A DNA stretch of 62,465 nt from an uncultured Bdellovibrionales bacterium. Lineage in GTDB: Bacteria > Patescibacteriota > Minisyncoccia > Moranbacterales > UBA2206. A program made the translations under genes and the position numbers. The notes below the pieces were generated by a model, which was not told where the DNA came from, made no database searches, and was given only the letters and a program-made list of their open reading frames with translations. The DNA is taken from assembly GCA_964636505.1 (NCBI GenBank), contig CAZWRY010000004.1, positions 4,985 to 67,449 of the forward strand, in the 5' to 3' direction. This document shows, piece by piece, positions 14,448-17,515 of this stretch. The first letter of the stretch is position 1. Every line of letters starts with the position of its first letter.

Positions 14448-15681
14448 CTTTTTTGTCGTTCCAAGGAATTCTTTTTTTGCCAATCGCCATGGTTTCTTCT
14501 GCGCCTTTGCCAGTTACCAACACAAAATCTCCAGGCTCTGCAATTTGCAGAGCTTTTTTAATGGCTTCGCGCCTATCCGGAATTGTCCAAAAATTTTTAC
14601 CTTCAATTTTATTTTTTATTCCACTTGTAATTTCATCTATTATCTGAAGCGGATCTTCATTGTACGGATCTTCGTTAGTAATGATAATGTGGTCAGCATA
14701 TTTAGAAACAGTATCGCCCATAATCGGCCTTTTACCGCGATCGCGCTGCCCGCAAGAACCGAAAACCGCAATAATTTTATTTTTTTGAATGTTTATTTTT
14801 TCAATGAACGCATAAAGCTTTTCTAATGAATCCGGTGTTAAAGCATAGTCAATAATAATACTCAAGCTTCTTTCATTTTCCACATATTCCATTCGACCCG
14901 GAACTAATTTTATTTTTTCCAAAGCTGATTTTATTATTTCAAGGCTTATCCCCTCAGAAAATCCCACACAAATCGCCGCCAGAGCATTTTCAACGTTAAA
15001 TTTGCCCAATAAATTTAATGTGAATTTTAAATTTTGAATTTTAAATTTTGAATTATTTATATTCAACTCAATTTCTTCAGCCTTTATAATTTTAAAATTC
15101 GTCATTGGAAATTTATTCGAAATTCTTGTGGAATATCCATAAGCATTCCTTGCTCCGCAATCCAAGAATCTTTCTGGTTTTTCCATGTCCAGATTAACAA
15201 TGGCCGTACTGATATTTTTAAATAGTTTGTATTTGGCTTGGCGATACTTTTCCATTGTCTCATGATAATCCAAATGTTCGCGGGTGATATTAGTAATAAC
15301 GGCAGTGTTATATTTAACCCCCCAAACTCGGTATTGATCCAAAGAATGAGAGGATGTTTCCAAAACCAAATATTCACATCCTTTTTTGACTGCTTTTTGA
15401 ATAAATTTTTGTACCGCAAAGCTGGAAAGAGTTGTAAATTTAGTTTTATTTACTTCCTCTTCACCATTCATTTTGAAATTTATAGTGGAAGCCACAGCCA
15501 CTTTTTTCTTTGCTTCTTCTAGAATTCTGGCAATCATTTGCACAGTCGTTGTTTTGCCATTAGTTCCCGTTACTCCGATGACTTTAATCTTTTTTGATGA
15601 GAACCCATACAAAATATTAGCCAAGACAGCTTGAAAAAGATGGTAAATATTTTTGATGGATTGTGGAATAAGTTTTTTCAT
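14419..15681 (-). CDS. murE: UDP-MurNAc-dipeptide amino acid ligase MurE
   Basis: GVTGTNGKTT, LETSSHSLDQ, TNITREHLDYH, PGRME, VFGSCGQRDRGKRPIMG. Confidence 0.9.
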   Translation of the reverse strand: MKKLIPQSIKNIYHLFQAVLANILYGFSSKKIKVIGVTGTNGKTTTVQMIARILEEAKKKVAVASTINFKMNGEEEVNKTKFTTLSSFAVQKFIQKAVKKGCEYLVLETSSHSLDQYRVWGVKYNTAVITNITREHLDYHETMEKYRQAKYKLFKNISTAIVNLDMEKPERFLDCGARNAYGYSTRISNKFPMTNFKIIKAEEIELNINNSKFKIQNLKFTLNLLGKFNVENALAAICVGFSEGISLEIIKSALEKIKLVPGRMEYVENERSLSIIIDYALTPDSLEKLYAFIEKINIQKNKIIAVFGSCGQRDRGKRPIMGDTVSKYADHIIITNEDPYNEDPLQIIDEITSGIKNKIEGKNFWTIPDRREAIKKALQIAEPGDFVLVTGKGAEETMAIGKKRIPWNDKKVIRELLSEA

Positions 15682-16688
15682 CAGAAAATTGATTTTATTT
15701 TTTGGATAATCCTGTACAGGAGATATATTTGCTGATTCAAGATTATATCATAGCTTCCTGAAAATTCAACCGGCTTGGTTTGTGGAGAAAAACCCAGCTT
15801 GAACTTGGTAATACCTGCCCAGGAGTTGGCTTTTTGCATTTTCACTCCCCCAAAATCATAGAGTTTGCATCCGTTCTTTTTGGCATCCAAAATAGCCTGC
15901 CATTGCAAAAGATAGGGTGCCATTACATTACGATATTCATCGTCAGTTGCTCCATGTAAATAAATGGCAGTATCTTCATAAAATACAACCAAATTAGCCG
16001 CAATAATTTTATCTCTATATTCTGCAACATAAAGTTTTATAATTTCTCCCGGAATAGTTTCCAACATTTTCTTATAATACTCACTGGCATGAAATCTTAT
16101 GTTTTTTCTTTTTTCCGTTAACTTAACTAGCCTAATAAATTCGTCTATATATTTTTTATTTTGGTCATTGGAAATTGGAGTTTGATTGGAAATTGGAAAT
16201 TGGAAATTGGAAATTACTTTCACAGAAACGCCTCGTTTCTGTGAAAGATTTATATTGTATCTTGTTTTTTGGCTCATTTCAGCCAAAATTTCTTCTTCTG
16301 ATTTAGAAATATCCATAATGAAGATTTCTTTCGGCTGCATATCATGCGGTGCTTTTCGAATTTTATATTCAGTACTATTTTTTATCAGGTTTAACATTTC
16401 TTCATTTTCTGGATCAATTCGAATCCAGCCAATGTTTTCTTTCTTGGCTAGAGTTAATAAAGTTGTCATTCCGATCCGCCAGCTGGCGGACGAGGAATCT
16501 AACTCCATAACTGGTCCGCGTGGACTATAAAAATACTTGCCTACTATTGGTAATTTGTGTTCAATAATGTTTGCCTGAAAATTACCCTCTGAAACAAAAA
16601 AAGTCCTCCGCCCAACGGCTGATTGAAATTTTCGCCATTCCTCAGATTGAAGAAAATTTAAATTGTTATTTTTTAGATTGTTTAGCAT
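15681..16688 (-). CDS. FemABX-family aminoacyl-tRNA peptidoglycan bridge transferase
   Basis: FLQSEEW, YSPRGPV, KTRYNI, YLHGA, YDFGG, FKLGF. Confidence 0.9.
   Translation of the reverse strand: MLNNLKNNNLNFLQSEEWRKFQSAVGRRTFFVSEGNFQANIIEHKLPIVGKYFYSPRGPVMELDSSSASWRIGMTTLLTLAKKENIGWIRIDPENEEMLNLIKNSTEYKIRKAPHDMQPKEIFIMDISKSEEEILAEMSQKTRYNINLSQKRGVSVKVISNFQFPISNQTPISNDQNKKYIDEFIRLVKLTEKRKNIRFHASEYYKKMLETIPGEIIKLYVAEYRDKIIAANLVVFYEDTAIYLHGATDDEYRNVMAPYLLQWQAILDAKKNGCKLYDFGGVKMQKANSWAGITKFKLGFSPQTKPVEFSGSYDIILNQQIYLLYRIIQKIKSIF
16465..16500. repeat. Composite palindrome inside the fem gene (GTCATTCCGA-TCCGCCAGCTGGCGGA-CGAGGAATCT)
   Basis: Perfect 16-bp palindrome 16475-16490 within attcc/ggaat arms. 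Confidence 0.75.
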
Positions 16689-16696
16689 AAATAAAG

Positions 16697-16732
16697 AGCG
16701 GGTAAAGAGAGTCGAACTCCTATCTCAACCTT
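16697..16732 (-). pseudogene. 3' half of a tRNA (Gly-like)
   Basis: aa-ggttg-agat-aggag-TTCGACT-ctctt-tacccgc-t gives an intact T-arm and acceptor 3' strand. The 5' half is missing here. Confidence 0.75.
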
Positions 16733-16755
16733 GCCTGCCCGTAGTGCTTCGCTTG

Positions 16756-16826
16756 AGCGAGATACCAGAATCGAACTGGCGCTTTAACCTTGGGAAGGTC
16801 ACGTACTACCACTATACTAATCTCGC
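16756..16826 (-). tRNA. tRNA-Gly(CCC)
   Basis: gcgagattagtatagtggtagtacgtgaccttCCCaaggttaaagcgccagttcgattctggtatctcgct folds as a cloverleaf. Confidence 0.92.
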
Positions 16827-16851
16827 ACATACAAAGCAGTTGGAGGGAACC

Positions 16852-16870
16852 ATGCCTGCCGGTAGGCAGG
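16852..16870. repeat. Palindromic repeat (a)TGCCTGCCGGTAGGCAGG
   Basis: Near-perfect inverted repeat abutting the tRNA 5' half. Confidence 0.75.
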
Positions 16871-16897
16871 GCATAATAGCCGCTATACTATACCCAC
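16871..16897 (-). pseudogene. 5' half of a tRNA (Gly-like)
   Basis: gtgggta-ta-gtatagcggctattat-g-c gives an acceptor 5' strand and D-arm; it pairs 7/7 (one GU) with the 3' half at 16698-16704. Confidence 0.7.
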
Positions 16898-16924
16898 AAA
16901 GAACGAGAAAAACTCGCCCTTGGT

Positions 16925-17515
16925 TTATTCTTGCGCTCCACCACCAGCATTCCCTGAACCAGAAGATACATTATTTGCGGATGTGTCTTCTGATGTGATC
17001 ACTGCGATTTGTGTTTTATCCTTGTTTGCTTCATCCTCACTTGCTCCCATGGTAACCATAACGCTAACCTGGCCTTTTTTGAAATTAAGTATTTTACCCT
17101 GCGTTCCCATGTCCGTTTCGTTTTCTTTTTGCCAACCACTCTTAGCCATTTCTTCTTTATATTTAATCATTGCTTCTTCTGGAGTAGTAGATGTAAGATA
17201 AGATATTGAATAGCTTTTTTCTGCAGCAGACCCGCTTATAGCAAAAACGACCTTTGCGTCAGAAAAAATAAAGATATCCTTGGGAAAATTTTCTGGAATT
17301 TTGACATTCTCGCCCGCCGAGAACGATCCGTCCTTGGTATCAATGCTCGCAGTTCCCTTACCTGTGTCAATATTTACCTTTCCGCCTGTTTGAGACTCAA
17401 TGGCCTTCTCCATTATTTTTTGGCCAATTTCTTCCTTGGATGGAAATGGCCAACAGCCCGAAAGTACTATAATAGCACCCAGGGCTACTGTCGCGAGAAA
17501 CAATTTTTGTTTCAT
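16925..17515 (-). CDS. Putative lipoprotein
   Basis: Lipobox-like IIVLSGC after a signal peptide. Confidence 0.7.
   Translation of the reverse strand: MKQKLFLATVALGAIIVLSGCWPFPSKEEIGQKIMEKAIESQTGGKVNIDTGKGTASIDTKDGSFSAGENVKIPENFPKDIFIFSDAKVVFAISGSAAEKSYSISYLTSTTPEEAMIKYKEEMAKSGWQKENETDMGTQGKILNFKKGQVSVMVTMGASEDEANKDKTQIAVITSEDTSANNVSSGSGNAGGGAQE

Follow-up and report, generated by a model that had tools for sequence, protein, structure and literature searches.

We analysed a 62,465-nucleotide (nt) stretch of contig CAZWRY010000004.1, hereafter the window, in which a 201-nt region upstream of a femAB-family gene (16897-16697, read on the minus strand, as are all of its parts) carries one glycine tRNA gene nested inside another. 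Seven pieces follow one another in series: the 5′ part of an outer tRNA-Gly(CCC) gene, a miniature palindrome, a short remnant with loop bases of the outer gene, a degenerate palindrome arm, a complete inner tRNA-Gly(CCC), a second palindrome arm and the 3′ part of the outer gene. An initial annotation, made from the sequence alone, had described a tRNA-Gly(CCC) lying between the two halves of a second tRNA, and all of its pieces were found at the expected minus-strand positions. Three features had escaped that annotation, namely that both genes share the anticodon CCC, that the inner tRNA lies between the arms of a single palindrome and that the arrangement recurs in other lineages.

The inner gene (16756-16826) has a full cloverleaf with anticodon CCC, U73 and the pairs G1-C72, C2-G71 and G3-C70. 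It is recognized by ARAGORN and, over its full length, by Rfam model RF00005 (62.5 bits); at this locus the two programs call the inner tRNA and never the outer one. An Rfam scan of the locus returned only this tRNA match, both at the gathering threshold and at E<=10, and a promoter and terminator scan of 16500-17100 gave nothing over background. For comparison, a scan with the FemAB protein, with one genome per species, yielded 34 relatives, all Patescibacteria of Moranbacteria/Paceibacteria type (loci compared here carry numbers with the prefix L). Among the loci discussed, L001, L002 and L032 belong to the assemblies CAZJOI01, CAZSCF01 and JARLIA01, respectively. The inner tRNA sequence is identical in the window, L001 (71/71), L035 and L036, and the gene is presumably functional and the present source of the tRNA. 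L035 and L036, which come from two other assemblies and encode an identical FemAB protein, carry the same arrangement base for base except at 16706, a T-stem base of the outer gene that forms G·U in the window and G-C in the other two, the pair being kept. Because these independent assemblies have the same layout, the nested arrangement is not a misassembly, a possibility that the initial annotation had entertained.

The outer gene opens with GTGGGTATAGTATAGCGGCTATTATG (16872-16897), which comprises the acceptor 5′ strand GTGGGTA, the D-arm and nt 26. It closes with AAGGTTGAGATAGGAGTTCGACTCTCTTTACCCGCT (16697-16732), which begins with the loop bases AA (16732-16731) and continues through the anticodon-stem 3′ strand GGTTG, the variable region AGAT, the T-arm AGGAG-TTCGACT-CTCTT and the acceptor 3′ strand TACCCGC to the discriminator T. 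The acceptor 5′ strand pairs with 16703-16697 over 7 bp, as first described, one of the pairs being U2·G71. Because 24 of the 26 nt of the 5′ part match the first 26 nt of the L024 tRNA-Gly(CCC), and 29 of the 36 nt of the 3′ part match the same gene, the resemblance of these halves to a tRNA is not due to chance; the 3′ part is also identical at 34 of 36 positions to the outer 3′ part of L002. Between the two parts, the remnant ATGGTTCCC (16845-16853) aligns with TGACC-TTCCC of L032 and TAAGC-TTCCC of L001, directly 5′ of the insertion considered below, and includes the first five bases of the outer loop, TTCCC (16849-16845), with the anticodon CCC. Because these bases and the AA of the 3′ part persist, the outer gene is, as read from its loop, a former tRNA-Gly(CCC) with the same anticodon as the inner gene, and not the tRNA-Gly(GCC) that had been assumed. 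Genes for tRNA-Gly(GCC) or tRNA-Gly(UCC) elsewhere, which were to have been counted against the nested reading, therefore have no bearing on it. Loss from the outer anticodon arm is real, but the only outer part absent is the 5-nt 5′ strand of the anticodon stem, rather than some 9 nt as the initial annotation had it.

Where this strand belongs there is instead a GC-rich mini-palindrome of 18 nt, CCCTGCCTACCGGCAGGC (16854-16871), with the perfect core CCTGCC-TACC-GGCAGG (16870-16855); L032 and L001 have no such 16-18-nt element at this position. The inner tRNA is preceded by an 18-nt degenerate 5′ arm of a palindromic element, TCCAACTGCTTTGTATGT (16827-16844), which is identical at 13 of 18 positions to CCGCCTGCTTCG(T/C)(G/A)TGT of L001/L032 and whose TGCTTTG still base-pairs with CGAAGCA of the 3′ arm. 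It is followed by CAA and that 3′ arm, GCGAAGCACTACGGGCAGGC (16733-16755), identical to L001 at 23 of 23 positions and to L032 at 21 of 23. The earlier description of each outer half as bordered by a palindromic element is accurate for the 5′ side, but the piece on the 3′ side is not palindromic by itself: it forms one arm of a split palindrome, and the matching 5′ arm lies at 16844-16827. The region also contains an imperfect 18-nt direct repeat, CTACCGGCAGGCATGGTT (16865-16848) and CTACGGGCAGGCAAGGTT (16744-16727), whose copies are identical at 16 of 18 positions; it looks as if the end of the 3′ arm, together with the initial bases of the outer 3′ half, had been copied into the 5′ half. No further copy of its GC-rich stretches occurs elsewhere in the window, and collapsing the repeat in silico yields only a 6-nt anticodon loop. 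The sequence GGCAGGCA was considered as an in-window repeat family and rejected, its three other matches all being chance occurrences in coding DNA without a palindrome.

The arms that bracket the inner tRNA belong to a dispersed, structured family of palindromic repeats. We use the name P for the element, a GC-rich imperfect palindrome of 38 nt. When metagenome contigs were scanned for the exact pattern of the 3′ flank, GCGAAGCACTNCGGGCAGGC, 80 loci were found; about half of them matched by chance within GC-rich genes and were not used further. At ~42 loci the partner (G)CCCGCCTGCATCGCTGK stands directly upstream of the 3′-flank pattern and completes an uninterrupted 38-nt imperfect palindrome, GCCCGCCTGCATCGCTGK-GCGAAGCACTGCGGGCAGGC, the 3′ half of which is the 3′ arm of the window. 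In L032 and L001 the sequence directly 5′ of the inner tRNA, CCGCCTGCTTCG(C/T)(A/G)TGT, is the left half of P and the 3′ flank is the right half, and the inner tRNA thus sits between the arms of one palindrome. The P hairpin has 12 pairs, with 93.8% of cells paired and three pairs showing compensatory change in a set biased by the exact-match search; it also has a conserved T·T mismatch and a GAA or GTA triloop (GNA). Rfam gave no match to P at E<=1 for 12 loci with an uninterrupted hairpin. Viral contigs searched with the 3′-arm pattern produced three matches, all of them due to chance in GC-rich coding DNA. By its sequence, the mini-palindrome of the window is a short relative of P; a 20-nt form of it, CCTGCCTACCGGTAGGCAGG, occurs in the T-loop of a tRNA remnant in L118-L120, and related variants are present in L025, L058 and L085.

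Relatives with an intact gene reveal how the outer tRNA was interrupted. In L014 and L024 an uninterrupted tRNA-Gly(CCC) reads GCGGGTATCGTATAGCGGCTATTATG-TGACC-TTCCCAA-GGTTA-AGAT-...-TACCCGC, and the outer tRNA of L032 differs from it by a clean insertion within TTCCC/AA and by two substitutions, both damaging. The insertion point falls in the anticodon loop at 35/36 or 36/37, with a 1-nt ambiguity and no target duplication beyond that, and the inserted DNA is the inner tRNA flanked by the two halves of the 38-nt GC-rich hairpin. L001 (with L041 and L046) and L002 are nested like the window and likewise lie upstream of femAB, L001 having the same upstream gene as the window, whereas the L032 nest occupies a different genomic context from those of the window and L001. 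The alignment with related genomes proposed in the initial annotation has thus placed the same arrangement at the same anticodon-loop position in other lineages. The borders of the insert and its length of 111-112 nt match across three lineages whose outer tRNAs differ. When 111 nt are removed in silico from L032 or L001, ARAGORN calls the outer tRNA-Gly(CCC), and it does so, with mismatches, when 137 nt are removed from L002. The same excision fails in the window for want of the anticodon-stem 5′ strand and in L041 owing to a partial deletion of the D-arm; that simple splicing would rebuild no canonical tRNA in the window had been correctly foreseen. Exhaustive in-silico deletions in the window were uninformative, with ARAGORN calling a tRNA with one of many anticodons in 681 of 2080 constructs.

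These comparisons make it probable that an insertion at the DNA level split a resident tRNA-Gly(CCC) gene, that the inner gene supplies the tRNA and that the outer halves are a decaying pseudogene. The insert, of ~112 nt, would be a complete second tRNA-Gly(CCC) bracketed by P arms that entered the anticodon loop at 35/36 or 36/37, and in the window the 5′ strand of the outer anticodon stem would in addition have been exchanged for a 16-18-nt miniature version of P. The same position appears to have been hit in different tRNA-Gly(CCC) genes of related Patescibacteria, and in some lineages repeated hits have apparently left remnants stacked on one another. Within P, the inner tRNA has the 4-nt repeat GCGA at both borders (TGT/GCGAgatt...ctcgctcaa/GCGAagc), and the insert may have arrived as a unit, or P may have come first and a tRNA-Gly have been copied in at the GCGA microhomology. 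Hairpin- or loop-directed transposition, microhomology or template switching could each have served as the DNA process. If only insertions into a cognate gene survive selection, with the cargo tRNA offsetting the loss, this would explain why a Gly(CCC) gene is found inside a Gly(CCC) gene. A single transcript would cover the locus, RNase P and RNase Z would free the inner tRNA alone, and the outer halves would be lost as leader and trailer.

In every lineage examined the outer gene is, to judge from its substitutions and deletions, a decaying pseudogene. The pair C2:G71 is an identity pair for glycyl-tRNA synthetase in bacterial tRNA-Gly. In the window the outer gene is split by 112 nt, the pair C2:G71 is weakened by a change of C2 to U, and the 5′ strand of the anticodon stem has been replaced, so that homology to a working tRNA is combined with the loss of functional features. 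In L032 a change of C2 to G breaks the 2:71 pair and leaves a G2·G71 mismatch, and T55 has become C. The outer genes of L041 and L046 have a deletion in the D-arm, and that of L002 joins a 5′ half of L001 type to a 3′ half of window type, with mismatched acceptor strands. In L118-L120 an intact tRNA is absent, and two modules made of a 3′ arm and a 3′ half stand in series, both of them T-loop chimeras, with L120 lacking one.

The initial annotation had offered two explanations. One was a functional tRNA-within-tRNA precursor, a 201-nt transcript from which the inner tRNA would be freed and the outer halves ligated or used as a two-piece tRNA. Minimum free energy folds of L032 and L001 do contain two cloverleaves, connected by a nearly unbroken helix of ~25-30 bp that extends the outer anticodon stem, and in the window the outer acceptor stem, D-arm and T-arm are well formed, the strain difference at 16706 keeping its T-stem pair. 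The same folds, however, show no bulge-helix-bulge (BHB) motif, since the 5′ junction lies in a continuous helix and there are only bulges of 1-2 nt on the 3′ side. A group I intron signal is likewise absent from the Rfam scans at the gathering threshold and at E<=10, and the insertion point falls within the anticodon or immediately behind it (35/36, 36/37), not at 37/38. The failure of excision to rebuild an anticodon stem in the window, the disabling, lineage-specific damage to the outer copies and the tails of 18-23 nt that the halves would retain after cleavage by RNase P and RNase Z all point the same way, and we regard such a precursor as very unlikely. The other explanation, that palindromic repeats target the anticodon arm and destroyed the tRNA gene, was right in outline, in that the flanks belong to a dispersed palindromic family and the outer gene appears to be decaying.

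An integrase scar, in which a larger element carrying a tRNA-Gly(CCC) would have integrated at the anticodon loop and later been deleted almost entirely, must also be weighed against the insertion of a compact unit. The anticodon loop is the crossover site of many integrases and a classical att position. An archaeal parallel to crossover at this site has been described (PMC3293823). The serial modules of 3′ arm and 3′ half in L118 resemble tandem att remnants, and the imperfect 18-nt direct repeat of the window could be read in a similar way. Independent deletions would not, however, yield the same borders and the same 111-112 nt in three lineages, there is no recombinase gene nearby, and the solo hairpins that occur in coding and intergenic DNA of several phyla are unlike an att site. 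As integration normally restores the target tRNA and does not nest a complete one inside it, this origin is very unlikely.

Comparison of the window with L001 bears on how the insert reached each lineage. In both, the outer 5′ half begins at the same spot, after a shared conserved hairpin-like sequence behind the stop codon of the upstream gene, and yet the outer genes themselves differ. The acceptor strands are GTGGGTA/TACCCGC in the window and GCGAGAA/TTCTCGC in L001, with two fully compensated pairs (4:69, G-C vs A-T; 6:67, U-A vs A-U). The D-arms differ and are both well formed, and the outer 3′ halves are identical at only 24 of 36 positions. The compensated differences in the acceptor imply that each outer gene was a working tRNA while the lineages diverged. 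Against this divergence, the inner tRNA plus 3′ arm are identical at 94 of 94 positions, whereas fourfold-degenerate sites of femAB are 51% identical (38/74), a rate at which the chance of finding 23 identical neutral bases is ~2e-7. Either the two lineages would have acquired the cassette of arms and tRNA in separate, recent events, or strong sequence constraint would act on the arm, and both may hold.

In a further alternative, the outer halves and arms are kept for a function in cis, in that they would serve the inner tRNA, the femAB mRNA or both as leader structures or in processing or stability. Such a role would suit the identity of the 3′ arm at 23 of 23 positions in lineages with 51% fourfold-site identity, the match of 34 of 36 between the outer 3′ halves of the window and L002, and the adjacency of tRNA-Gly and femAB in many relatives, given that FemAB enzymes use Gly-tRNA as donor. 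It does not suit the degenerate 5′ arm of the window, which indicates that the helix is not maintained, nor the difference between the outer 3′ halves of the window and L001 (24/36). Moreover, L124-L126, L011 and L016 have a plain tRNA-Gly(CCC) in which outer halves and arms are absent, and L121 and L127 have no tRNA at the position upstream of femAB. We therefore consider a function in cis unlikely.

Some relatives carry stacked remnants. At L118:1340-1500 (L119 being the same) and L120:60-212, upstream of femAB, two modules are present with a 20-nt perfect palindrome within the last T-loop, and the lack of a whole module in L120 indicates that the locus is still variable among close strains. 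At L131:30-80, just upstream of an intact tRNA-Gly(CCC), the sequence GTAACCTTCCCAAGCCCCGCAC resembles the end of a tRNA-Gly anticodon arm joined to the start of an arm of L002 type. It may be the decayed 5′ remnant of an older nest, but we did not trust it enough to use it as evidence. The further femAB relatives have plain tRNAs or none, apart from this possible remnant in L131.

Such layers could also descend from a single ancient nest of several layers that was inherited vertically and differentially deleted, without ongoing mobility. If the window-type outer tRNA is labelled alpha, the L001-type outer tRNA beta and the inner tRNA B, the order in L118 is 3′ arm, alpha 3′ half, 3′ arm, beta 3′ half, and L002 is a chimera of a beta-type 5′ half and an alpha-type 3′ half. 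Both would fit a doll in which beta contains alpha and alpha contains B, cut by deletions between repeated arms or T-loops. The identical start point of the outer 5′ halves in the window and L001 would, however, require two precise deletions, and L032 has the same insertion in another context in an outer gene only two substitutions from intact. At least two nesting events are needed in any case, and we hold the single ancient nest to be rather unlikely.

Repeated insertion into resident genes, which we continue to favour, could take a stronger form. In this form the arm-tRNA-arm unit would be a self-contained mobile cassette that enters a cognate anticodon loop, disables the resident gene and supplies a replacement tRNA; on the present comparisons this is possible but doubtful. 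Several observations weigh against the insertion model or its mobile version. A free arm-tRNA-arm unit was not seen outside a tRNA gene, no transposase or recombinase partner of P was found, with no RAYT seen in the loci inspected, and the window has copies of P at the tRNA locus only. Larger palindromes centred on solo copies of P were only weakly enriched (5/31, against a shuffle mean of 1.1 and a shuffle maximum of 5), and loop targeting is therefore not established. The 18-nt direct repeat and the ATGG that replaces the stem strand in the window are not accounted for by the insertion, and inversion, a collapsed cassette and target duplication were each considered as a history for the mini-palindrome and ATGG, with none fitting cleanly. 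Finally, the arms of L001 and L032 (15/17 and 21/23) are better conserved than the cargo tRNA (60/71), which speaks for sequence-specific constraint on the arms and weakens recent transfer as the sole reading of the identity between the window and L001.

Uninterrupted copies of P were found in Moranbacteria, Falkowbacteria, Verrucomicrobia and Bacteroidota, and proteins encoded on contigs that bear it group with entries that NCBI labels Prosthecobacter/Verrucomicrobiaceae, Cyclobacteriaceae and Candidatus Falkowbacteria. The 38-42-nt hairpin is nearly identical in a Moranbacteria genome of 37% GC (L023) and a soil contig of 59% GC (L075). Solo copies in Moranbacteria include L023:3880-3921 (CGCCCGCCTGCAACGCTTTGCGAAGCAATGCGGGCAGGAGCG), upstream of femAB. 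Another, L121:964-1000 (also in L122), lies just after ruvA, where relatives carry a tRNA-Gly gene. A third, L017:5762-5799 in Candidatus Moranbacteria GW2011_GWE2_36_40, lies in-frame in the Mur ligase gene that follows femAB, in a stretch of ~26 additional residues (...SRPPATIAFRAGLRGN...) that is absent from the Mur ligase orthologue of the window. Three copies occur within 2.9 kb of L075 (1018-1062, 1173-1212 and 2527-2566) and three within 12.9 kb of L090. In related soil contigs (L038, L050, L060, L079, L080, L105, L108, L109, L115 and others), P occupies one conserved site, ~25 nt upstream of a divergent purA start, and is intact there despite variable flanks. Beyond the nested patescibacterial loci, P showed no association with tRNA genes.

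The femAB-family gene (15681-16688, minus strand; Pfam FemAB, 5.7e-44) starts with an ATG at 16688, 8 nt after the discriminator base of the outer tRNA. The ten genes surrounding the locus are housekeeping genes, and its neighbours are femAB, the Mur ligase gene, an apparent lipoprotein gene without a Pfam match and ruvA; no integrase or transposase gene lies within ~4 kb on either side. A tRNA-Gly(CCC) directly upstream of femAB on the same strand is also present in L001, L002, L011 and L124-L126; L131 and L132 instead have it immediately behind ruvA, ~1 kb upstream of femAB. Given that Gly-tRNA is the donor for FemAB enzymes, the tRNA-Gly(CCC) next to femAB may be tied to cell-wall synthesis.

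Several known systems share features with this locus. P resembles REP/REPIN elements in its build, since two inverted units of ~19 nt make up a short, GC-rich imperfect palindrome that folds into a hairpin. It also resembles them in being dispersed and mostly intergenic, with clusters that are sometimes nested or tandem and, in some genomes, several copies on one contig. REP/REPIN elements are miniature palindromic repeats moved by RAYT transposases (PMC3116915, PMC3337134). They differ from P in having a conserved GTAG head, whereas the flanks of P are variable with CTAC/GTAG beside few copies only. REPINs are moreover reported to be lineage-specific and vertically inherited, unlike the near-identical P of different phyla, and are not reported to carry, or sit inside, a tRNA gene. 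Rickettsia palindromic elements (RPE) are likewise tolerated within genes, as P is in the Mur ligase gene of L017 and in tRNA genes. They measure ~100-150 bp, are confined to Rickettsia and are not known to bring a nested replacement gene.

Disrupted tRNA genes of archaea are interrupted in or next to the anticodon by sequence derived from mobile elements, and related inserts can occupy the same position of different tRNA genes. They include BHB introns at non-canonical positions and split or permuted tRNAs, with intron gain via mobile elements (PMC4033280, PMC3293823, PMC4390854). The present case differs in that the host is a bacterium, there is no BHB motif and the interrupted gene appears dead and replaced by a tRNA within the insert. 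Bacterial tRNA genes were described in a 2014 review as uniform except for self-splicing group I/II introns at 37/38 (PMC4033280). Group I introns of bacterial tRNAs also enter the anticodon loop, but do so at 37/38, and the larger intron encloses a catalytic core of at least ~100 nt, whereas the insert here is 111-137 nt, mostly tRNA, lies at 35/36-36/37 and has no Rfam intron match. Integrative elements that target tRNA genes share entry at the anticodon loop, the partial tRNA copies left behind and serial remnants such as those of L118; the present locus differs in lacking an integrase, in the ~112-nt size of its insert and in nesting a whole tRNA where the 3′ part would otherwise be restored. 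A full-text literature search returned nothing relevant on tRNAs nested in one another, on introns in patescibacterial tRNAs or on palindromic elements located in anticodon loops, and replacement of a bacterial tRNA gene from within appears not to have been reported. Disruption of genes by palindromic repeats is known in kind; the unusual features here are the built-in replacement gene and the recurrence at one loop position.

Because tRNA finders call the inner gene only, nests of this kind and their decaying halves escape annotation. P merits a description of its own, as it has no Rfam family, is near-identical in Patescibacteria, Verrucomicrobia and Bacteroidota and is tolerated in-frame in a protein gene. 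The repeat-borne insert that appears to have broken the outer gene would provide a bacterial, sequence-level example of tRNA breakage by mobile DNA, the process from which archaeal introns and split tRNAs have been proposed to originate, and the nest suggests a way of exchanging one tRNA gene for another while its function is kept. If the arm-tRNA-arm unit is indeed a mobile cassette, it would be a bacterial tRNA-gene replacement element built on a hairpin repeat found across phyla, and successive invasions would leave Russian-doll layers of dead tRNA halves. In these tiny bacteria, resident tRNA genes seem to have been replaced from within repeatedly.

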